Made by a program: the position numbers and the translations under genes
The notes under the pieces: generated by a model
Database searches by the model: none
What the model saw: the letters and a program-made list of their open reading frames with translations, nothing else
Told to the model about the DNA's origin: nothing
Virus record (IMG/VR): IMGVR_UViG_2636415673_000004
Coordinates: 1-48,566 of that record
Length of the DNA stretch: 48,566 bases
Direction: 5' to 3' (one strand)
Source: a virus
Taxonomy: Duplodnaviria > Heunggongvirae > Uroviricota > Caudoviricetes
Part shown: one piece after another, positions 11,915 through 46,300 of the stretch
Position numbering within the stretch: position 1 is the stretch's first letter
Layout of the letters: each line of letters starts with the position of its first letter

Positions 11915-14472
11915 CGTCCACCTCCGGAGAACAGACCACCATCGCGCATCTGTGCCTGGATTTCATCACGGGCACCCTTGCGGGCCATGTCATACACCGC
12001 CTTCATCATCTGTGGACCTGGCAGACCATTCGTACCGTCGTTCTGAATCACCACGTTGTTGTTCTGCTCAAACCTGATACCCTCTGAACGCCGCATTTGC
12101 GCCGGACTTCCGGTGCCACCGACATAACCGCCGGTGGCATAGCCGCGCATCAGCCGGTAGAGATTTCCCACGCCAATCCGGCTGGTTGCCTCCTTCGTGA
12201 AGACAAATTCACCACGGTGAACAATCCCCGCTGGCTCATATTTGCCGCCGGTTCCCGTAAATCCTCCGGTTGCAAAATGGAGTTTCGCCGCAGCGGCCTG
12301 AATGGCTGTACCGCCTGACACTGATGCGCCACCACCGGCAGCACCGCCAATGACGCTGCCGATACTCCCGACAATCCCCACCATTGCCTGCTTAAGCAGA
12401 ATTTCTGTCATCATGGACAGCACGGAACGGGTGAAGCTGCGCCAGTTCTGCTCACTGCCGGTCAGCATCGCCGCCATATTCTGTGCAATTCCATCAAAGG
12501 TCTGCGTGGCTGCACTTTTTACCTGCGACATACTGTCCGTGGCGCTCTCTTCCCACTCACTCCAGCCGGACTTCAGGCCTGCCATCCAGTTCCCGCGAAG
12601 CTGGTCTTCAGCCGCCCAGGTCTTTTTCTGCTCTGACATGACGTTATTCAGCGCCAGCGGATTATCGCCATACTCCTCCTTCAGGCGCTGTTCCGTGGCT
12701 TCCTTCGCTGCCTGCCGGTCAGTCAGCCCCCGGCTTTTCGCATCAATGGCGGCCCGTTTTGCCCGTTGCTGCTGTGCGAATTTATCCGCCTGCTGCGCCA
12801 GCGCGTTCAGGTGCTCCTGATACGTGACCTTATCGCCAAGTGCAGCCAGCTGGCGTTTGTACTCCAGCGTCTCATCTTTATGCGCCAGCAGGGATTTCTC
12901 CTGTGCGGACAGCTGGCGACGTTGCGCCGCCTCCTCCAGTACCGCGAACTGACTTTCCGCCTTCCACAAATCCCGGCGCTGCTGGCTGATTTTCTCATTC
13001 GCTCCGGCATGCTTCTCCAGTGTCCGGAGTTCTGCCTGAAGCGTCAGCAGGGCAGCATGAGCACTGTCTTCCTGACGATCGCCCGCAGACACTTTCACGC
13101 CGGACTGCTTCGGCTTTTTCAGCGTCGCTTCATAGTCCTTTTTCGCCGCCGACATCAGCGTGTTGTAATCTGCCTGCAGGATTTTTCCGTCTTTCAGTGC
13201 CTTATTCAGTTCCTCCTGGCGGGCGGTATATTTCTCCAGCGGTGTCTGCAGGCGTTCGTAAGCCTTCTGCGCCTCTTCGGTATATTTCAGCCGTGACGCT
13301 TCGGTATCGCTCTGCTGCTGCGCATTTTTGTCCTGTTGACTCTGCTGTTCAGCCTTCTTTCGGGCGGCTTCAAGCGCAAGACGGGCCTTTTCACGATCAT
13401 CCCAGTAACGCGCCCGCGCTTCATCGTTAACGAAATAATCATCCTTGCGCAGATTCCAGATGTCGTCTGCTTTCTTAAACGCAGCCTCTGCCTTAATCAG
13501 CATCTCCTGAGCGGTATCAGGACGACCAATATCCAGCACCGCATCCCACATGGATTTGAATGCCCGTGCTATCCTGTCTGCCCAGGTTTCCAGCGTGCCC
13601 ATGTTCTCTTTCAGGCGGCGGGTCTGGTCATCAAACCCTTTCGTTGCGGCCTCGTTCGCTGCCTGCAATGCCCCGGCCTCATCGCCGGAACGCTGCAACT
13701 GAGCAACATACGCAATTTGCTCCGCCGTCACGTTATGGAACTGGCGCGCCATCGCCGTCAGCCCCGACGTCGGGTCAGTGGTCAGCTTCCCGAAGGCTTC
13801 AGCGACCTTGTCCACCTCCACGCCGGATGCAGAGGAGAAACGCGCCACACTCTGGCTGATGGACGCAATCTGAGCCTCACCGCTTACCCCCGCCTTAACC
13901 AGTGCGCTGAGTGACTCGCTGGTCTGGTTAAACGTCAGCCCTGCCGCCTGCCCGGCTCTGGACAGGACCAGCATACGATCTGCCGTCAGACCCGACTGAT
14001 TACCGGAAAGGACCAGCGTTTTGTTGAAATCGGACAGGGTTGAGTTACCCTGATACCAGGCATACGCCAGCGCACCGGTCGCCACCGCCAGCGAGGTGGC
14101 CCCGACCATCGGCAGGGTGATCGCACCGGCAAGCCCCCGGAACATGGGGATCATCCCGCCGAAGGAGTCCTTAACCTGACCACCCTGTTGCAGCAGGATC
14201 AGCCACGGACTTTGCCCGCCTGCAAGCTGCGTGGCCACGTCGGTGAACTGCGCAGGCAGCATACGCATGGCAGCTTTATACTGCCCGACGGAAATCCCCG
14301 CTTTCTGTGCAGCCAGCGCCTGCCGGTTCATCGACTGTTCAACGACTGCCGCTGTTTTTTTCGCATCAGTTTCCGTACCGGAAAAATGACGCCTGACTCT
14401 GGCCATCTGCTCGTCAAATCTGGCCGCATCCAGACTTAAATCAACGACCAGATCGCCTACTGGTTCAGCCAT
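11911..14472 (-). CDS. H: Tail tape-measure protein H (853 aa)
   Basis: Same length as lambda gpH; coiled-coil rich; conserved position. Confidence 0.95.
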   Translation of the reverse strand: MAEPVGDLVVDLSLDAARFDEQMARVRRHFSGTETDAKKTAAVVEQSMNRQALAAQKAGISVGQYKAAMRMLPAQFTDVATQLAGGQSPWLILLQQGGQVKDSFGGMIPMFRGLAGAITLPMVGATSLAVATGALAYAWYQGNSTLSDFNKTLVLSGNQSGLTADRMLVLSRAGQAAGLTFNQTSESLSALVKAGVSGEAQIASISQSVARFSSASGVEVDKVAEAFGKLTTDPTSGLTAMARQFHNVTAEQIAYVAQLQRSGDEAGALQAANEAATKGFDDQTRRLKENMGTLETWADRIARAFKSMWDAVLDIGRPDTAQEMLIKAEAAFKKADDIWNLRKDDYFVNDEARARYWDDREKARLALEAARKKAEQQSQQDKNAQQQSDTEASRLKYTEEAQKAYERLQTPLEKYTARQEELNKALKDGKILQADYNTLMSAAKKDYEATLKKPKQSGVKVSAGDRQEDSAHAALLTLQAELRTLEKHAGANEKISQQRRDLWKAESQFAVLEEAAQRRQLSAQEKSLLAHKDETLEYKRQLAALGDKVTYQEHLNALAQQADKFAQQQRAKRAAIDAKSRGLTDRQAAKEATEQRLKEEYGDNPLALNNVMSEQKKTWAAEDQLRGNWMAGLKSGWSEWEESATDSMSQVKSAATQTFDGIAQNMAAMLTGSEQNWRSFTRSVLSMMTEILLKQAMVGIVGSIGSVIGGAAGGGASVSGGTAIQAAAAKLHFATGGFTGTGGKYEPAGIVHRGEFVFTKEATSRIGVGNLYRLMRGYATGGYVGGTGSPAQMRRSEGIRFEQNNNVVIQNDGTNGLPGPQMMKAVYDMARKGARDEIQAQMRDGGLFSGGGR

Positions 14473-26800: not shown

Positions 26801-27003
26801 ATTTTCACTTTCTTAAATCTAACGACAGACGGCTAACATTTAAGTATTGTGAAATATTATCAAATGTAATCATCATTGATTTACAAAAGATACATTTTGC
26901 CCCGAAAGGATTCCTGTCAGAAACATCAAAAGATGATGTTCTATACTGAGAACCATGGCAACACGGGCATCTAAAGTGAATATGGTTTGTAATATTTTCT
27001 ACC

Positions 27004-27216
27004 TCAAAGTGCCACTACATGAACAGCCGCGGGGCCTTTAGGTCCGTTCTCAATACCAAATTCGACTTGCTGATTCTCAGTTAACGTTTTGAAATCGTTG
27101 CTCTGAATAGCTGAGAAATGGACAAACACATCTTTGCTACCATCTTTCGGCGTGATGAAACCAAAACCTTTTTCAGGGTTAAACCATTTCACTAAACCAG
27201 TCATTTTGTTAGACAT
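27004..27216 (-). CDS. cspI: Cold-shock protein CspI (70 aa)
   Basis: [45 protein letters not shown]... is a cold-shock domain with RNP motifs. Confidence 0.85.
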
Positions 27217-27584
27217 CATTATTACCTTTTGAAGAAGTTAGCCCTTGGGCAGAATGGTCCGAAAAAAATATCAGAGAGAAAAACCAACAAGGAAATCTCA
27301 AGAGGTACAAATAATAAAATTATAACAATGACTGCTTCAGATAATTTTGTAACAAACCAGAACACCATTAACGCATGATTAACCAACCATAGCAAGGATT
27401 ACTTTTGTAAAGAAAAACACACGAATGAAACAATAGCTTTATTTATTAATAAAACGTATCATTCTGTCTAATGACCTTTTATCTTACCCTTAAGATTTCA
27501 AGGATTTTGACTCATGGAAGAGTCCTTTTTATTTAAATTTCACATTCAGCGCTAAAAATAATCCGATTTAATGTTAATCTACAT

Positions 27585-29903: not shown

Positions 29904-30266
29904 TTGATTTTATTCGTAACAAGTATTTTTTATATTTTAATAACATATTTAAAGCAGATAATAAAAAACCCGCCTGAGCGGGTTTAATATTGTGGTACTT
30001 TTTGTGGGAGTCATCCACTTACGCACTTTGTTTTGCTATGCCAGCAGTTAGCTTCTGCTGTAAAACTATTCATGCAGCAAACCTGCACTTCACCACAATG
30101 GTTAGCATACTTTTCCTGATTAAGTTATTGCCAAATATGCTGGCCATTGTTTCATGTATTGGACCTCCTTACTATTTATTAAAGAGATCCAATATTCACC
30201 ACTCTGTCTGTATCTCCACTCAGGCATCAGCCTTCTTCGTTATCGTATACAGACAAACTATGAATT

Positions 30267-30482
30267 TTAATCAGTAATTATGACATTTGCTGCTGCAGGA
30301 CCTTTAGCACCACTCTCTACAGAGAAGGTAACCTTTTGACCTTCAAATAAGGTTCGATAATTATCATTCTGAATCGCAGAAAAATGCACAAACACATCTT
30401 TACTACCATCAACAGGAGAAATAAAGCCAAAACCTTTATCAGCGTTAAACCATTTTACTAAACCAGTCATTTTATTTGACAT
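30267..30482 (-). CDS. cspB: Cold-shock protein CspB (71 aa)
   Basis: [45 protein letters not shown].... Confidence 0.85.
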
Positions 30483-30782
30483 TCTACATTCCTTAACTTG
30501 AGCCTTTCGGCATAAATGGCTTGTATAACAGAAACGACTTCGTACTTAATTGGAGAGACTCAAAGAAGGAATAAGTGAATAACACCTGAAATGAGAACTG
30601 CTTTAGTAAACTACTTCGTATATCGTCTGTTCTTCAAACCGACGCAATCATTAACGCATAGTTGAACATATGAAGCAATGTTTATTTTAGACATCCAGCC
30701 ATCTTCAACCCCATCAAAAAACTATAGCTTTCTTCAGGAACGTGTGTATAGTGCGCCAAGTTATCAGTATTAAGGAATTTTT

Positions 30783-31417: not shown

Positions 31418-32170
31418 TTATCTCGTCACCTTTCTCAATTGTGCTTCAGCGTAAGATTCCTCCTGCCAGCACTTTGTAACCAGTTTATCAATGACATTTG
31501 CATATCCTTTATACCACTGATAATCACTCAGGTCCGGTACCAGCTTCTGGACATGATGCCGCGCCAGTGTGGTTGGTAAACGACTAAACCGTTTTCCATT
31601 GCAACGCCCACAAATCTTATAAACAGGTGTGCCATGAAGCCGGGTCCTTTTTTCATCCAGGACAATACCTTTACCCTTACACCCTCTGCACGCTGTGCTG
31701 ACTTCTCCCTTACCATGGCAATGCTGACATAGTTCCTTCACCCACTCTTCTTTGATAACAGATTCCCCGCTTCTGGAGTGTTTCACCACTTCGCGCAATA
31801 CATTATGAAATCCAGTACCAGCACAATGCTCACAACGAGCCTTACTTGCCGCAGACCTGGAATAATCAGCAAAGGCAAAATTCACAAGGTAAGGAATAAT
31901 CTGTAGCCGGGTTTCTTCACTCAATTTATTCAATGTCGGGTTATCCAGTGCCATCGCGTAATTGAGCAGACCTTCAATCGCAAACTGAGGATCCTGAACA
32001 CCAACTTTTGCCAGGAATAAGGCAAACCCAAGCGGTGCTTTCGACTGCACCATCCCCTGCGCAGCCATCACATCCGTAATCGTTAAACCACCAGAGCCTG
32101 TCGCCGGTGCGTCATCACTCAATTTTGGAGATTTTGGGGAGTAATATTTTGGTAAGGCTTCAAGGTTCAT
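31418..32170 (-). CDS. quuQ: Late-gene antiterminator Q (250 aa, QuuQ-like)
   Basis: Cys-rich zinc-binding motifs (CEHCAGTG...CQHCHGKG...CRGCKGKG...CGRCNGK); same length as QuuQ; sits before the late promoter and lysis genes. Confidence 0.8.
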   Translation of the reverse strand: MNLEALPKYYSPKSPKLSDDAPATGSGGLTITDVMAAQGMVQSKAPLGFALFLAKVGVQDPQFAIEGLLNYAMALDNPTLNKLSEETRLQIIPYLVNFAFADYSRSAASKARCEHCAGTGFHNVLREVVKHSRSGESVIKEEWVKELCQHCHGKGEVSTACRGCKGKGIVLDEKRTRLHGTPVYKICGRCNGKRFSRLPTTLARHHVQKLVPDLSDYQWYKGYANVIDKLVTKCWQEESYAEAQLRKVTR

Positions 32171-37307: not shown

Positions 37308-37918
37308 GCGTTAGTTTCTCCACAACCAGAAGCAATCGACGCCACGACGCCCGGAGCTGCACACTCGCGGGCGTCATTACTTTCTGAAACGCAAAAAATT
37401 TTGTAGACAAGTGCTGCATGCTCCTGCAGCTTCGAAATTGAGAGGTACAGCTCGTCGTTAATTGCTGTCTTCTCATGCGGTTCCACTACACCGTCTTCGA
37501 TTGCCGAACGAATCTGTTTTGAATAACTGCCGATCTGTTCAATGACTTCCAGTAAACGCTGGTTAATATCGGCATTGTCCACATCCTCGACGTCAGGAAG
37601 AGACACAAAGACGCCATTTGCAGACTGCGCCACAGCGTCAGCAATGAAGTGAGTGCCACCAGCACGTTGTAAAATCATTGCCCATCCCAGCGGGAAAATC
37701 TGATCGCCATCGGCACGAAGGCGGTTAAATAATGCGTTCTCTGTTACATCCAGCCAGTCAGCTGCTTCAGCGTAACCACCCGGCAACGCTGCGATAGTTT
37801 TTCTGACAGCTTTCACGTACCACTCAGGCTGTTTTTCTACTTTCCAGTGATACTTACCCACGGTTAGCCTCATCGTTCTGTGGTTTCTGTTAATCGATTT
37901 ATCCATTAGATTTTTCAT
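37304..37918 (-). CDS. CII-like/YdaT-like regulatory protein (about 204 aa); start uncertain (37918, 37906 or 37975)
   Basis: Follows cro; central region [21 protein letters not shown]...FPLGWAMIL resembles the lambda CII HTH region. Confidence 0.45.
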
Positions 37919-38099
37919 AAAGCTCAGGTTTAAATGGCAACCGTCCGCAAGTTCTATATGCTGCTTCTGCTGCACGTCCTTTTGGAATTAACTGGCCCGG
38001 ACGGTTTCGCCACTGATAAACGGCCTCAGTTGTTATGCCGAAAAAAGCAGCAACTTTCTCAATACTGCCGAAGTAGCTTTCGATATCGTCAGTTGTCAT
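37899..38099 (-). CDS. Cro-like repressor, DicC/YdaS family (66 aa)
   Basis: HTH SIEKVAAFFGITTEAVYQW and overall pattern similar to DicC as recalled; divergent from the CI-like gene; GGAGG RBS. Confidence 0.75.
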   Translation of the reverse strand: MTTDDIESYFGSIEKVAAFFGITTEAVYQWRNRPGQLIPKGRAAEAAYRTCGRLPFKPELYEKSNG

Positions 38100-38197: not shown

Positions 38198-38824
38198 ATG
38201 GAAACGGTTGGTCAGCGTATAAAAGCTCTGAGAAGGGTTACCAGAACGTCCCAGAAAGAATTGGGTAAATTTTGTGGGGTAAGTGACGTTGCTGTGGGGT
38301 ACTGGGAAAAAGACATCAATGTCCCTGGCGGGGAAGCACTTTCGAAATTAGCGAAGTTCTTTAATACGTCAATAGATTACATTCTTTATGGTGCTGAGTT
38401 TGAAGGCAAACTAGTCACAAACATGCGCAGAGTTCCTGTAATTTCGTGGGTTCAGGCTGGGCAGTTTACTGAGTGCAGGGCAGCAGAAGTGTTTAGTGAA
38501 GTGGACAAGTGGGTAGATACATCTTTAAAGATTGGTGATAACTCATTTGCATTAGAAGTTAAAGGCGACTCCATGACTAATCCTAATGGCCTCCCAACAA
38601 TACCAGAAGGTGCAACAGTGATTGTAGATCCTGATGCAGAACCTCGTCATGGAAAAATAGTCATTGCTCGACTTGATGGAACGAACGAAGCTACAGTAAA
38701 AAAATTAGTCATCGATGGTCCTCAAAAGTTTTTAGTGCCATTAAATCCACGGTATCCCAACATCCCAATCAATGGTAATTGCCTGATCATTGGTGTAGTC
38801 AAAGGAGTTCAATACGAACTCTAG
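38198..38824 (+). CDS. cI: CI-type prophage repressor (HTH-XRE plus S24 LexA-like autopeptidase), 208 aa
   Basis: N-terminal HTH (QKELGKFCGVSDVAVGYWEKD); C-terminal S24 motifs GDSM (Ser) and a downstream Lys (ATVKKL). Confidence 0.85.
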   Translation: METVGQRIKALRRVTRTSQKELGKFCGVSDVAVGYWEKDINVPGGEALSKLAKFFNTSIDYILYGAEFEGKLVTNMRRVPVISWVQAGQFTECRAAEVFSEVDKWVDTSLKIGDNSFALEVKGDSMTNPNGLPTIPEGATVIVDPDAEPRHGKIVIARLDGTNEATVKKLVIDGPQKFLVPLNPRYPNIPINGNCLIIGVVKGVQYEL

Positions 38825-38846
38825 TACCTCCCTTCTCTAACCAAGG

Positions 38847-38880
38847 CACCAAACTAAGAAAAGTTTGGTGTTTCCTCTTG
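38847..38880 (+). terminator. Candidate terminator downstream of cI
   Basis: CACCAAACT-aagaaa-AGTTTGGTG followed by TTTCCTCTT; AT-rich stem, so only moderate. Confidence 0.4.
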
Positions 38881-38988
38881 CCTTAAAAACTAAGTTAAGT
38901 TAGATTTAATATCAAAGATAACGAACAGGCAGGACGCCCACAAAGTAGCCTCCTGGGGCAAATGAAGTCCAGGATGATTCGTTAGCAA

Positions 38989-39012
38989 CAAAAAAGCGCC
39001 CTATAGGACGCT
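38989..39012 (-). terminator. Rho-independent terminator downstream of the 39055..39576 gene
   Basis: Minus-strand AGCGTCC-TATA-GGGCGCT followed by TTTTTT. Confidence 0.6.
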
Positions 39013-39054
39013 TCGATCTTTAACAATCTGGGTATCATCCAACCAATGCAAGAT

Positions 39055-39576
39055 TTAAGGAATCCAAGGCGAATTCAGATCTCGCCCCGACTCACGTAAT
39101 GATCTTGGTCGTTCGTACATCGGATTTTTTTCCATAAGAAATTTATTTTCACAGTGAAGGCAACGGCTTGTAAGAAAATGAGAAGTTTTACCTACTGGAA
39201 GCGGATGAAGTATCGATTTTATATTTTTGGAATAACAAAGTGGGCACAGATGCACAGTTATTTCTTTTCCACTCACAATTTCATTTTTAGAGTAAACAAA
39301 AGCACCAGAGTCAAGCTGATCAAGGACATATCCTTCTACCTTGGCACAAAAATCTTCAAACTCTGCAATTTTTGCTTTGAGATGCATCACCTCTTCATCA
39401 CGAAGGCGGATCGCATCGCCAAGAGAGAAGCATTCTGCCTGAAGCGTGATTAGTTTGTTCTGGAGTTCAATGGTTGCAGCTTTAACTTCTGCATCCGTTT
39501 TCGCGTCATTAATAACCTTAGCAAGACCGGCAGTCTCCTTTATAGCAGCCATAGCCGCAGACAGTTCAGCTATCAC
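39055..39576 (-). CDS. Hypothetical protein (173 aa; coiled-coil N-terminus, CxxC...CxxC C-terminus), antisense to cI and the early-left operon
   Basis: Non-repetitive ORF with its own terminator; CPLCYSK...CLHCENKF motif; start codon GTG (39576) or ATG (39552), both with weak RBS. Confidence 0.45.
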   Translation of the reverse strand: MIAELSAAMAAIKETAGLAKVINDAKTDAEVKAATIELQNKLITLQAECFSLGDAIRLRDEEVMHLKAKIAEFEDFCAKVEGYVLDQLDSGAFVYSKNEIVSGKEITVHLCPLCYSKNIKSILHPLPVGKTSHFLTSRCLHCENKFLMEKNPMYERPRSLRESGRDLNSPWIP

Positions 39577-40045
39577 GTTGAATACTCAGCTAGTTGTTGG
39601 GGGTATCCAGATTAACCAAATCCTTGTTGTTGGGGAATAACCAGGTCCACCTCGCCTGATGTGGCTAAAAGCAGGCACATAACAGCTAAGTATTTTCAAC
39701 CAGAGAGAATCCTTAGCGTTGTGGTGAATGCGGCTCAGCGCACGCGGGTTAAGGTTGAGGCTGACAGTCGACCTTCTGTGGATACCCACCCGTCTGGTGT
39801 GCAACCTTCGCCAGGCACCGGGAGGCACCCGGCACCACAACTTTATGCTGTGTGTAGTCCTGGCGGTACCAGTTTGTACCCTTGCTTCCGGCTGGTACCG
39901 TCCTTTTTACAAAACAGAGAAGAGCATCACCGGACGACGGGCTCATAACCCAATCCATCCGGGCGGCTGCCACCGCAGGTGTTCTTCTCTGTTTTGTGGA
40001 GAAACTAATCGGCCTTGCAGGGTCGATATGATGAGGAGCAGCAAA

Positions 40046-40408
40046 ATGGCTAGCGAACGCAGTACTGATGTGCAGGCATTTATCGGGGAGCTGGACGGCG
40101 GCGTATTTGAAACCAAAATCGGCGCAGTTCTCAGTGAAGTCGCTTCCGGTGTGATGAACACGAAAACCAAAGGTAAGGTCTCACTCAACCTGGAAATCGA
40201 ACCATTTGATGAGAACCGTGTGAAAATCAAACACAAACTCTCATATGTTCGCCCGACTAACCGCGGGAAAATTTCCGAAGAAGACACCACCGAAACGCCG
40301 ATGTATGTCAATCGCGGTGGTCGCCTGACTATTCTGCAGGAAGACCAGGGACAATTACTGACTCTTGCCGGTGAGCCTGACGGAAAATTACGCGCAGCAG
40401 GTCATTAA
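40046..40408 (+). CDS. YfdP-like hypothetical protein (120 aa)
   Basis: Strong RBS (GAGGAG, 7 nt, ATG at 40046); first gene of a YfdP/Q/R/S-like cluster. Confidence 0.6.
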   Translation: MASERSTDVQAFIGELDGGVFETKIGAVLSEVASGVMNTKTKGKVSLNLEIEPFDENRVKIKHKLSYVRPTNRGKISEEDTTETPMYVNRGGRLTILQEDQGQLLTLAGEPDGKLRAAGH

Positions 40409-43332: not shown

Positions 43333-46300
43333 TCACACGCTGCGCCTTCGAGAATATTCATTTAATCGCTGATAACGAACATCTTGCTCCAGTTGTGGAG
43401 CAGCTTGAACAATTTGAAGCAAGCATTGCCCCAACTCTCGAGGCCCCCAGTGTTGTTCGGCAATCACGGCATTCAGCAGGGATAGAGCGTCCGCAGGATA
43501 TCGGCTGCAAATATCTGATTCTAGCAAAAGGCGAACGTCGTAGCTAAGGTGTTCGAGCGGTTGCAGCCAGTCCTGCACCACTGCCAAAGCCGCCGGAAAT
43601 TCACCTCGGGCAGCAATCACCATACGAGTCAACGATTCGGATATGCGTGGGGTGGCCAAGTTGCGGGACTTTGGCCAAACCTGTTGCCAAAATGGCTGGA
43701 CACGATTTTTCCAATACTCCTCGCGCTGATCGCCCGCACCTTCAAGTGCCTGGTATAACGCCTGCGCGGCTACCTCCAGACCTTCTTGTGGAAGAGCACT
43801 AATTGCCGTTCGGAACTCCTCCACGGTATATCCCTCGGTAGGGCCCAGAGCTGCATAAGTCAGGAAAGTAGCGAATTGCTGCCGGTGCTCGCCAAGATCA
43901 GAATAGTGATTGGCGCTCTCCAAAAAATCTGACTTGAAAGCTATCAGCAACGGTTCATACAGGCGTGGCGACCAGAGGAAGCCTTCCCACACAGCTTTTG
44001 CTTCGACGGGATTACTCCAAGCAAACAAGGGCAATAGATACTGTTCGGTCCAAGGTCGATCTACGCGAAAAAATGCGATCAGCCGCGACCCCAGCAACAC
44101 CCGACCATGGCGGAATAGCTCTATCTGTACATTACACAATTTGGTGAAAAGTGTTTTCAATTCAACAGGAAGCAAATCATTGTCATTCGGGTTCTGTTTG
44201 AACCATAGGGTGATCAGTGATTGCGTGACATGCCCAATGGGATGATTGATCGCCGTAGAAACAGGATCATAGGTCTCAATTCCGTTTCGAATGGTGCTAG
44301 ACTCTGGGCTTGTTTCTATCATCAGAACCCGACGACAAAGGGCCAGTAGAATCTCCTCGTGGCAGAGGATGGTCTTCGAAGCCTCCTCCATCCACCAAGT
44401 GACAGCGTGGGAAATCTCCTGAAGTACTGCGTCAGGCATGTCAAGCACCAACGGTGCGGCGTACCGCCACGAACGCAAAATCATCCCTGGTTCAGCCCAA
44501 GTCTGCAGAGCTTCACGCCACCGACCAACAGGCCACACATCATCTTGTGATAGTTTACTTAACGCATACAGACTGTGAAAAAAGCGCGTACGGCAAACAT
44601 CACTCCAAGTGTCCTCATAGAAAGGCAGTCTTTCTGGCATAGGCTTTGCGAGCCATTGCACTAATTCCTGCCACTTACGGGGCGCAATGTCGACATCTAT
44701 ATTCTCCTCGAAGCCTGGATCACCGGTTCCGCTCATCCAGTGAGAGAATTCATCACGCTCGTTGGTTGCCAGTTGCCATTTTGGGTATGCTGTGGATATT
44801 TCCGTCAAACGTGTAGCCGCAGACTCTCCCAAAACAAGGCCCGCTCCCCTGAGCTTCGCTAGACACAACCAGACGGAATGAGCCACCAAATAATGCCACC
44901 TGTCTGCTTCCAAATTATCCTCGTACATCTCGCGCGGAGGCCCTGCCAAGATAGCAGTTTCCAGACGCTCTTGTGCAATTCCTGTCAGATGTCGTCCCTG
45001 CAAAACAAACAGTCTGAATACCTCTCGCCCAGTATCCGTGGCCCACAACCACCATGAACCGTCCTCTAACAACCAATTAACCCACCGCTCAGGTGGTATG
45101 CAGTTGTCTTGGCTTGCGGCAAACAGTGCCAGACGTTTGAAGGTGGGATATGGCAACTCAAACCAATTCTGAGCAATGCGCGTGGCCTGATCGCTGTCTT
45201 TGGCTCGAACGGCTAACCATGAATCCCGAAGTAATTCAATCAGGCTCACCCAATCGCGGAACCCCCGGTTCTGCCAGTGCGGAGTGATGGACGGCAAATC
45301 CCAATGCGAGCGGTCGTGACGATCGTCGGACTCTCCCAACTCCCGCAACAAGTCCAGTGCATCACGCAACAACTGCTGAAAATCTTCCAACAGGTATGGC
45401 AAGGACGATTTCCATGACTCGTCAGCAAGGTCGAACAGGGTTGAACGTACGTAATCAGCAGTCAGCACCAGCTCCCAATCCACCAATTGCTTGATTCGCA
45501 AGGGTTCATCAGTGCTGCTCGAATCGTCTTCACTATAGCGAAACGGCCGCCTCAACATAACCTTGGGAGAAAGCAACTCGCGTAACTCCAAGCGCAATGT
45601 AGTCGTCAAGCCTTCATTCTTTAAGCGGTTTTGCCAACGATACAAATCCAGGTTCTGCAATGGCGATTTCACACGACCACTAAGCAGAAGCCGCCATAAA
45701 GTAGACATAGGTGGACCAGGAATAGCCAGGGGGGAATGCAAGAGAATTTCATCTAACTCAAAAGTCTTACGCTCCCGCATCAGTGCTGCTAAGCGATCTA
45801 GTTCGCTCTCAATCAGAAACATCCAACGGTCGTGTATTTGTCCGCCGCGTTCAGCAATCCATATGATCAACCTAGGGTCGCCCAGATAACGAACTAGCCA
45901 ACGGGCTATATGGGACATTACGTCATCCCATTTGCTAGCACTGACACATCCAGAAACCAGCGACATCTGCAGGGCCAGCTCATAGGGCGCAGGACGCTGA
46001 ACCAGACTGAATCGGAGTTTCGGGTCAATTTCGACATGCGGAGATACACAAAAGCGTGGCAGATCGCTGTATTTAAATCGTTCGTCCGAGAAAGCTTTCA
46101 ATAACCAATCCAGCGGCGGTGCAGGATTGAGTTCCGCAAAGCGTTTTGCTGGTAAACCTGATTTATCTGACAAGGCCCACAACATCCGACCAACGAAATC
46201 GTCCTGACGAGTGCTGTCCTGCGGGCGGGCCAGAGCATGTTTGACGACTATAGCCTCTTTGCCCTGTATACCATCTCGATAAGTATCTGCCCAAGCGTGC

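Follow-up and report, generated by a model that had tools for sequence, protein, structure and literature searches.

The closest described relatives of the RNA element analysed here belong to the STnc100/PasD/EcOnc27 family of small RNAs (sRNAs). PasD has been validated by Northern blot and by RIL-seq (bioRxiv 10.64898/2026.05.13.724894). EcOnc27 is an Hfq-binding sRNA that was detected experimentally and is overlapped by family copies downstream of stx2, and variants of the stx2-adjacent copy have been linked to clinical outcome (PMC12711010). The put RNA of HK022, about 70 nucleotides (nt) long, has as its binding site on the polymerase the beta' zinc-binding domain and is composed of a triplex plus two stem-loops (PMC9378689). 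Among lambdoid phages without N, a large group that includes SfV, SfII, SfIV, ST64B, LLS, phiNP, many Stx2c phages, Stx2a_1447, Stx2a_WGPS2 and mEp460, a put-like RNA has only been guessed for LLS, by Casjens and colleagues (PMC12315714). In this study, we examined positions 39577-40045 of the IMG/VR virus record IMGVR_UViG_2636415673_000004 (Caudoviricetes), whose full 48,566 nt are referred to as the window.

This interval lies between a prophage repressor gene and yfdP, the first gene of the early-left operon. An earlier note had described it as highly structured and poor in open reading frames (ORFs) at a place where an N-like antiterminator would be expected, and had proposed an sRNA or a cis-acting RNA element, with DicF of Qin and the put RNAs of HK022 as possible models. 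The class was right, in that the interval contains conserved, non-coding RNAs including a member of an Hfq-binding sRNA family, but the particulars of DicF and put were not borne out. The sequence features that had been listed are all real, with coordinates exact or within 2 nt. They do not, however, make up one element: the direct repeats belong to the flank of an inserted moron, the shorter hairpin is a terminator and the 15-nt arms are part of a separate RNA with a three-way junction.

An STnc100-type core and its relatives

The plus-strand segment 39717-39842, here called module 1, is a divergent, promoter-less member of the STnc100/PasD/EcOnc27 family, and this assignment is well supported. 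In a permissive Rfam scan of the interval the only significant match was STnc100 (RF02076), which aligned over its entire length (model positions 1-206 of 206) to 39688-39910 with 41.2 bits and an E-value of 4.3e-7. The score lies below the gathering score of 47 bits, and the near-identical SfIV copy and the ST64B copy reach 38.4 and 35.1 bits against the same model. The core motifs and helices of STnc100 are all present in the window, namely RUGGUG-AAU, P2, P4, ACCGGGAGGCACCCGGCACCA and the closing helix P1. A covariance model, R1, with a seed of 42 diverse cores gave the window a score of 80 bits (E 7e-16, R1 E-values being rough), partly by construction since the window's own core is in the seed. 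Sequences outside the seed score almost as high (ST64B 79 bits, phage P1 73 bits), and the model also finds phiES15 and SJ46 and, more weakly, LLS, Klebsiella phage Kp4866-6 and Stx2a_1447. In total, R1 detected 130 copies in 100 loci, 105 of them distinct, and at least 120 IMG/VR contigs contain the 19-mer CCGGGAGGCACCCGGCACC without a mismatch. Both IMG/VR sets used in this study were seeded with exact motifs, so that diverged members are under-sampled.

The fold is closed by helix P1, which pairs 39718-39726 with 39833-39841 and corresponds to a 9-nt inverted repeat, GTTGTGGTG/CACCACAAC, that had not been listed before. The three nucleotides that follow its 5' strand are AAU (39727-39729). 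They lead into P2, where 39730-39734 pair with 39740-39741 and 39743-39745, leaving A39742 bulged, and which has a conserved U..GCG loop; in the window P2 is of a compensatory second type, GCGGC/GC-CGC instead of CCCCC/GG-GGG. P4 (39792-39799 with 39809-39816) carries a loop that pairs with the segment after P2 to form the pseudoknot P3 (AAGGUUG at 39751-39757 with CAACCUU at 39802-39808), and P5 (CCGGG-AGGCA-CCCGG, 39818-39832) abuts the 3' strand of P1. The cluster of three GGCACC copies, confirmed at 39814, 39824 and 39831, is accounted for by the two strands of P5 together with the 3' strands of P4 and P1.

Folding energy alone is weak for this segment (39688-39912, z = -1.9), and its structure rests on covariation; the description of the interval as highly structured does hold by energy for 39900-40050, which folds with -62.5 kcal/mol (z = -5.5 against shuffles). 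Across the 105 distinct sequences P1, P2 and P4 covary, with 92.4% of pair cells standard and a score of 0.44 versus 0.14 for shuffled sequences and at most 0.13 for slid partners. The slid-partner control is the more telling of the two because the alignment was fitted to the model. Two-sided changes were found at seven of the nine pairs of P1, three of the five pairs of P2 and all eight pairs of P4. P5 is invariant in that set, partly through selection on P5 itself, and in the diverged Kp4866-6 and LLS it reads GGUGG-AGGCA-CCACC, a covarying stem with the loop kept. At the junction and in the loops some nucleotides hardly vary at all, namely AAU, the bulged A, GCG in the P2 loop and AGGCA in the P5 loop.

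Because the MAFFT alignment of the variable middle of module 1 is unreliable, the pseudoknot was tested without an alignment. The longest helix between loop and partner averages 6.73, and exchanging the loops among the sequences lowers this to 4.82 ± 0.12. The copies use more than 12 different complementary pairs of sequences, for example AUCAGC/GCUGAU, CCAGUC/GACUGG, CUGGUGU/ACACCGG, AAGGCUGG/UCAGCCUU and AGACUGACAAA/UUUGUCAGUCU. A four-arm, pseudoknotted fold with cloverleaf-like topology is thus well supported for the STnc100/PasD family as a whole. Both the pseudoknot and the four-arm topology appear to be missing from the structure line displayed with the Rfam model and from the consulted passages of Zhu et al. 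STnc100, which exists in thousands of copies, is recast by these results as a complex covarying fold, and this argues for a specific molecular partner.

Copies of the family fall into two architectural classes, stand-alone genes ("type A") and operon-embedded copies ("type B"), the latter including the window copy. Stand-alone copies are bona fide STnc100, at 57-132 bits. A promoter-like site lies directly upstream in 52 of the 90 non-redundant ones; at a stricter score 26 remain, and in these there are typically 2 nt from the end of the -10 hexamer to where the model begins. A terminator follows within 160 nt in 64 of the 90, its T run starting a median of 45 nt after the core. In some loci three to five complete units follow one another in tandem at intervals of about 250 nt (L017 2265-3380; L036 1702-2340; L074 4349-5513; L027 371-990), and a match to isrI (RF01392) falls inside the array of L074. 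The Hfq-binding RNAs seen in experiments, EcOnc27 and PasD, belong to the stand-alone class.

Embedded copies have the second type of P2 and lie in sense orientation inside operons, namely in the early-left leaders of ST64B, phiES15, LLS and Kp4866-6 and in the ban operons of P1 and SJ46. No promoter-like site was found directly upstream of 15 of the 17 copies classed as embedded by script; of the two exceptions, one has a weak promoter-like site and the other (L107) is apparently a misclassified stand-alone copy. The window copy has none directly upstream of 39717 either, and it lies about 800 nt downstream of the putative early-left promoter, PL. Having no promoter of its own and being downstream of PL, it would be controlled by cI and would not be made in the lysogen. 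A second copy of module 1 in the PR operon, comparable to the putL/putR pair, was not found; the only other R1 match in the window (12126-12219, 14.8 bits, E 0.27) is noise. The P1 and SJ46 copies (P1 70077-70202, which is L005 1501-1626; SJ46, L007 2501-2626) score 73-79 bits and sit just upstream of tciA. The P1 ban operon also contains tRNA genes and an annotated dicF-like region, and the P5 loop of the P1 copy is AAGCA instead of AGGCA.

Directly 5' of helix P1, several embedded copies carry the motif UGCUCUUUCC, which we take to be boxA-like from our own reading of the sequences against the boxA consensus. It is present in P1/SJ46, in loci L078 and L099 and in a remnant in lambda; Kp4866-6 has UGCUCUCUUC. 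The resemblance is weak in the window, where the counterpart AAUCCUUAGC is degenerate and matches at four of eight positions. The lambda remnant, at 44847-44907 (L128 1048-1108) between tR' and gene S, is a deleted version of the embedded element in the late leader. It reads GUGCUCUUUCC-GUUGUGCUG-AAU-UAAGCG...ACCGG-AAGCAGA-ACCGG-AUCACCA including the boxA-like prefix, and it is visible in the sequence yet falls below R1 detection.

Terminator, module 2 and the coding question

Between module 1 and the terminator lies a linker, UGCUGUGUGUAGUC (39846-39859, plus strand), which is conserved in the window, phiES15, Kp4866-6 and LLS and has one change in ST64B. Seeds and Hfq sites usually occupy this position, and the linker is a candidate seed or Hfq-proximal segment; no complementary site for it was found above chance elsewhere in the window. 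The intrinsic terminator that follows (39861-39908, plus strand) has the stem GG-CGGUACCAG/CUGGUACCGUCC, a 19-nt loop and a U tract at 39904-39908. It contains the 9-nt inverted repeat CGGTACCAG/CTGGTACCG that had been read as terminator-like, at 39864-39872 and 39892-39900, with TCCTTTTT beginning at 39901. The hairpin (39861-39903) and U tract align to the terminator part of the STnc100 model. The terminator is conserved in position and not in sequence: at this place ST64B, LLS, phiES15 and Kp4866-6 show stems of unrelated sequence, and in each the U tract behind the stem is the same. Only weak, non-conserved possibilities were seen in the window for an anti-terminator pairing of the P1 3' strand or the linker with the terminator.

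In LLS (L238 1895-1945) and ST64B (L003 2905-2960) a second terminator-like hairpin stands upstream of module 1, followed by AGCUUUUU(A/C)AGG and by part of a duplicate of module 2's 5' arm. Two further loci (L150, L215) have a hairpin of this upstream type joined directly to module 2 without module 1, an arrangement which suggests a cassette insertion that brought in module 1, linker and terminator together.

Module 2 (39909-39997, plus strand) consists of a long stem that caps a three-way junction, as indicated by the folding energy given above (z = -5.5) and by a consensus fold. The stem arms, 39909-39930 and 39978-39997, form about 20 bp and start at the terminator U tract. The earlier note had given them as an inverted repeat, and the 15-nt arms ACAAAACAGAGAAGA/TCTTCTCTGTTTTGT are indeed perfect (39909-39923 and 39983-39997), extending to 25 nt at 84% complementarity. 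Hairpin A (39931-39962) contains the 20-mer ACGGGCUCAUAACCCAAUCC at 39937-39956, unchanged across phages of E. coli, Salmonella and Klebsiella; the module 2 set was selected on a degenerate version of this motif, so that the breadth is the finding and not the invariance. Hairpin B (39963-39976) is free in length and sequence among relatives while its pairing is kept. In a consensus fold of 11 diverged sequences, seven of 33 pairs show two-sided changes, one position having GC:CG at 6:5.

Module 2 is a widespread second motif, found in at least 120 IMG/VR loci and unmatched by any Rfam 15 family: no match to its interval was obtained at E-values up to 10. A T run occurs at most 60 nt upstream in 75 of 86 non-redundant copies, and in 54 of the 86 a yfdP-like gene follows with its start codon about 110 nt from the core motif; the remaining copies mostly precede unrelated first genes. 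Many N-less phages have module 2 ahead of the first gene of their early-left operon. About 10 of the 86 are a variant directly 3' of a tRNA gene that closes with a 6-bp helix followed by ACCA. Examples from late regions are Klebsiella phage Chronis (L129 1203-1268), where the tRNA is tRNA-Asn, and loci L134, L141, L158 and L162. The closure GGCCUG/CAGGCC plus ACCA amounts to a tRNA-like acceptor end, although ARAGORN makes no call. These features suggest that module 2 derives from or mimics a tRNA without a D arm and with a CAU anticodon loop. As a lead only, the GGG/CCC stem with CUCAUAA loop of module 2 resembles the anticodon arm of the initiator tRNA, tRNA-fMet.

Downstream of module 2 a small hairpin with a UGCAG-containing loop (40008-40027, plus strand) precedes the ribosome-binding site; relatives have a hairpin of this shape too, built on other stem sequences. 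The Shine-Dalgarno sequence GAGGAG (40033-40038) serves the yfdP-like gene (element 40033-40408, plus strand; 120 aa; phrog_204; no Pfam family), which PGAP starts at the same ATG, 40046. Two further in-frame ATGs, at 40028 and 40031, lie upstream within the stretch GAUAUGAUGAGGAGC (40028-40048) that also supplies the Shine-Dalgarno sequence, so the true start of yfdP is not certain.

The whole of 39577-40045 is non-coding. The label "ORF-poor" calls for some qualification: stop-free stretches reach 110 codons, and no frame on either strand is consistently open in the diverged relatives. Shuffled sequences of the same composition average 85 ± 20 codons, and 12% of them reach the observed length. 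As had been noted before, an N-like protein is absent: searches of Pfam and PHROG with the ORFs from the repressor to yfdP gave no match to an N-type antiterminator. An in-frame extension of yfdP begins with the Arg-rich MRLSARGLRLRL (39728) inside the GC-rich RNA core, and several diverged lineages have in-frame stops 5-12 codons upstream of the start codon. Considered as a possible N-like protein, this Arg-rich N terminus, the only one of its kind there, was discarded since it is not conserved.

Existing annotation treats the interval differently. SfIV (L002 2904-3248 and 3136-3816) has two overlapping coding sequences, a 226-aa extended YfdP and a minus-strand ORF, and PGAP/RefSeq places a "frameshifted hypothetical protein" pseudogene over 39721-40031 (L237 3397-3707). 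These annotations, together with PHROG matches for two ORFs (phrog_3651, E 8e-50; phrog_33599, E 1e-15) and the 100-126 stop-free codons that precede the start in the yfdP frame of the window and ST64B, would be expected if the extended YfdP, the pseudogene or the minus-strand phrog_3651 ORF encoded a protein and the RNA folds were incidental. We regard this as very improbable. In 64 non-redundant relatives the open length ahead of the yfdP start, in its frame, ranges from 5 to 126 codons, no better than another frame, and open stretches are no longer than in shuffles. Moreover, hairpin B varies while its pairing persists, and substitutions in the helices are compensatory. The PHROG matches are explained by near-identical DNA common to many E. 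coli phages, and both families appear to have been built from ORFs of this sort, called where the conserved entity is an RNA. For lack of a conserved frame and for open lengths like those of shuffles, all of the coding readings were rejected: the extended YfdP, the PGAP pseudogene and the minus-strand ORFs. One PGAP pseudogene and two PHROG "protein families" over RNA can be flagged as annotation errors.

The prophage setting and proposed control of the early-left operon

The window is a lambdoid prophage. Its LexA-type repressor gene (38198-38824, plus strand; HTH_3 and Peptidase_S24 domains) is faced by a P22-Cro-type gene (37899-38099, minus strand) and a CII/CP76-type gene, and the early-left operon follows 3' of the repressor gene on the same strand with genes like yfdP, yfdQ (DUF2303) and yfdR as well as two DUF551 genes. 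The late antiterminator gene, at 31418-32170 (minus strand), is of the Q82 type (PF03589). The same layout of cI, a gap of 0.5-1.2 kb, yfdP, yfdQ and yfdR is seen in SfIV, ST64B, Stx2a_1447 and LLS, and the non-coding interval is also present in SfV, SfII and mEp460. In whole or in part, 38825-40046 was matched in 2788 of 5426 complete E. coli genomes.

The putative PL (TTGCCT, 17 nt, TAGATT; 38878-38906, plus strand) overlaps the operator-like AAAACTAAGTTAAGTTAG. The cI/cro intergenic region and the PL site have operator-like 14-mers in common that recur only at 38881-38898; matches are confined to that site, and no cI operators were found within 39577-39716. LLS has the same immunity sequences, with TTGACC, 17 nt and TAGATT directly after the repressor gene, and in ST64B and Stx2a_1447 the site directly 3' of cI is likewise taken by an equivalent promoter with operators of their own. 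With PL at 38878-38906, the entire region 39577-40045 would be inside the PL transcript.

In LLS the homologue of 39648-39678 begins within about 25 nt 3' of PL, and window positions 38913-39646 are extra by comparison. This insert carries a moron (39055-39576, minus strand; 173 aa; phrog_1244) with its own terminator (39014-38993, minus strand). It separates PL from the leader RNA and is oriented antisense, so that transcripts from PL would traverse it. At this position the moron is absent from LLS, ST64B and Stx2a_1447. Its protein, for which neither Pfam nor PADLOC gave a family, has a helical N-terminal part and a C-terminal CxxC...CxxC, and PADLOC found no defence-system match for the moron, yfdP or yfdQ.

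The 5' flank of the moron (39577-39646) holds the two direct repeats noticed earlier and lies outside the conserved RNA. The repeat GTTGTTGGGG occurs at 39593-39602 and 39626-39635, 33 nt from start to start, and these are its sole copies in the window. The moron-bearing phages PhiR29 and SfIV match from query position 2 or 17 of the interval. The matches of SfV and SfII begin no earlier than query position 71 (window 39647), and the LLS leader joins PL directly to the segment at 39648; being absent from SfV, SfII and LLS, the repeats are not part of the RNA elements. They may be regulatory sites of the moron. The leader segment common to SfV, SfII and LLS (39647-39716, plus strand) ends in the degenerate boxA-like sequence described above (39707-39716).

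Other structured RNAs were seen further away. At gathering threshold the only Rfam matches in the whole window, both outside the region, are two full-length cspA thermoregulators (RF01766) at 26958-27373 and 30204-30643 (both minus strand; 113.7 and 156.7 bits), which indicate two cold-shock-protein genes with structured 5' untranslated regions in the late region downstream of the Q82-type gene. ST64B (L003 409-597) and Stx2a_1447 (L004 1268-1469) carry C4 antisense RNA (RF01695) and isrK (RF01394) beside an antirepressor gene on the PR side. Neither was found in the window at gathering threshold, the PR side not having been searched permissively.

Our preferred reading, to which we give about an even chance, is that the region is the 3' part of a long untranslated leader of the PL operon in an N-less prophage of the SfV/ST64B/LLS type, where it combines attenuation with release of an STnc100-type RNA. 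When cI is inactivated, PL transcripts would run through the leader, and most would stop at the terminator at 39861-39908 so that the operon is attenuated. The terminated transcript, once trimmed at its 5' end, would be a stable RNA of STnc100 type, ending like Hfq-binding sRNAs in a 3' hairpin and U tail. Read-through transcripts would fold module 2, whose helix of about 20 bp starting at the U tract is a likely site for RNase III or other processing and a likely translation-control element; processing there would separate the leader RNA from the mRNA and set the expression of yfdP and the downstream genes. Attenuation is preferred because the same core in relatives ends at an adjacent terminator, because a terminator is the one constant barrier before the operon and because no other terminator makes processive modification necessary: that at 39861-39908 is the only convincing plus-strand intrinsic terminator in the early-left operon.

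Several points weigh against this reading. Attenuation and RNA release at 39577-40045 are predictions from sequence, and PL was assigned by analogy of the same kind. For an RNA to arise from PL, its 5' end would have to be processed some 800 nt beyond the transcription start, and the 19-nt loop and 5-U tract make the efficiency of the terminator uncertain. Cleavage of module 2 by RNase III is argued from the length of the helix and by analogy with the lambda N leader. The window copy would be silent in the lysogen, so that the regulatory role in the lysogen that has been proposed for PasD/STnc100 is not simply transferable. Finally, the intricate, invariant core exceeds the needs of a base-pairing sRNA and points to a protein, RNA polymerase or ligand as partner. 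Neither attenuation nor antitermination explains so elaborate a core, which suggests a further partner. On a related and tentative view, which we hold to be on the unlikely side, STnc100/PasD, among the most abundant annotated sRNAs in prophages of pathogenic E. coli and Salmonella, is not simply a base-pairing sRNA but a tRNA-shaped, pseudoknotted partner-binding RNA, and the embedded copy, terminator and module 2 together provide N-independent early-left control in phages of the ST64B/LLS/SfV type; candidate partners may be RNA polymerase, Nus factors, a processing enzyme or a small molecule.

Among the alternatives, RNA-based antitermination without N would have module 1 act in cis on RNA polymerase, by itself in the manner of put or as a nut-like platform (boxA-like sequence and structured RNA) for host Nus factors or a phage protein, letting early-left transcription pass the leader terminator and resist Rho. 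There is much to recommend this: the phage has no N-like gene, a terminator stands between PL and every early-left gene in all relatives examined, and an untranslated leader of 0.5-1.1 kb would be an obvious target for Rho. Embedded copies are sense-oriented in long operons (the early-left leaders and the P1 and SJ46 ban operons), several have the boxA-like UGCUCUUUCC directly before P1, and specialists proposed a put-like RNA for this same leader in N-less LLS (PMC12315714). We nevertheless consider it a possible but rather doubtful explanation. The stand-alone members evidently stop at their own terminators, being seen as sRNAs of about 200 nt and in tandem promoter-RNA-terminator arrays, so the fold is not a constitutive antiterminator. 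The early region of HK022 shows no sequence similarity, and the fold is unlike the two-stem put structure (PMC9378689). The boxA-like motif is degenerate in the window, and no strong terminator was found between cro and Q; without further strong intrinsic terminators to bypass, processive antitermination is not obviously required.

Lower again in probability, and in our judgement improbable, is an attenuator of riboswitch type in which occupancy of module 1 as an aptamer, by a ligand or protein, decides whether the terminator forms. The layout would suit it, with a promoter, a pseudoknotted domain closed by P1, a spacer of 20-45 nt and an intrinsic terminator, as would the near-invariant AAU, P2-loop GCG, P5-loop AGGCA and bulged A. 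Read off the sequences, the P1 3' strand can also pair with a downstream AUGGUG in some stand-alone copies, but the window offers no convincing pairing that excludes the terminator stem. Tandem arrays of complete units are unusual for riboswitches, no Rfam riboswitch matches, and the genes that follow the copies (yfdP, kil or tciA, or lysis genes in the case of the lambda remnant) are varied, with no class that points to a ligand. The DicF-type, division-inhibiting antisense sRNA known from Qin has in its favour a positional analogy (repressor, leader RNA, early genes) and a chance-level match on the terminator hairpin. That match, by the covariance model RF00039 to 39849-39903, gave 15.7 bits versus a gathering score of 48 (E 3.2), which effectively refutes the identity, and the region is fully accounted for by other conserved elements; the chance that a DicF-type RNA is present is negligible.

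Whichever reading holds, the PL leaders of N-less phages share a fixed series of conserved RNA elements. Their helices, pseudoknot and loops can be mutated, which makes the question of early-left control testable.

Comparison with known systems

The map position is that of the lambda nutL/N leader, with repressor, PL, a structured leader and the first gene in the same places and a long helix before the ribosome-binding site. In lambda the leader carries boxA, boxB and an RNase III-sensitive hairpin before the N ribosome-binding site. A boxA-like motif is present in some embedded copies and is degenerate in the window. The window differs in having no N protein and in having a terminator inside the leader itself. 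No boxB-like 5-bp stem with a GNRA-like pentaloop was seen in the leader, the P5 loop being AGGCA.

With putL/putR of HK022 the likeness is that of a cis-encoded structured RNA downstream of an early promoter in an N-less lambdoid phage, upstream of terminators. The put RNA, at about 70 nt with two stem-loops, contrasts with the four arms and pseudoknot of module 1 (about 125 nt), and put-modified polymerase passes the next terminator whereas stand-alone STnc100 members end there. The suggestion of a put element, made in the earlier note, found no support at the level of sequence: HK022 20000-40751 gave no Rfam STnc100, R1 or blastn match beyond chance 10-13-mers, the put sites themselves not having been located or aligned.

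C4 of P1/P7, CI RNA of P4, IsrK of Gifsy-1 and DicF of Qin are small RNAs cut from or terminated in early or immunity leaders of phages, as is proposed for module 1. Unlike module 1 they are simple hairpins with known antisense targets, their models do not match the interval, and C4 and isrK of ST64B and Stx2a_1447 lie on the other side of the immunity region.

Module 1 also appears to resemble tRNA, by our own reading of its cloverleaf topology: the closing helix would stack on a 5-bp hairpin that abuts its 3' strand, and two further arms are present. ARAGORN disagrees, finding no tRNA or tmRNA in the window, ST64B, Stx2a_1447 or Kp4866-6, and the Rfam tRNA model has no match in the interval. 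P5, whose loop is 5 nt long, does not end in a T loop, and module 2 has no D arm and, in the window, no CCA end.

The closest comparison remains that with STnc100 (RF02076), PasD1/PasD2 of enteropathogenic E. coli and EcOnc27/sRNA103 beside stx2 in O157:H7. The window copy differs from STnc100 in its score below the gathering threshold, in its second-type P2 and in being embedded, without a promoter of its own, in what would be the PL transcript. It has the same core as these RNAs, with RUGGUG-AAU, P2, a variable middle and ACCGGGAGGCACCCGGCACCA, and it shares with STnc100 the order of core, spacer and intrinsic terminator and the same hosts, phages of Enterobacterales.

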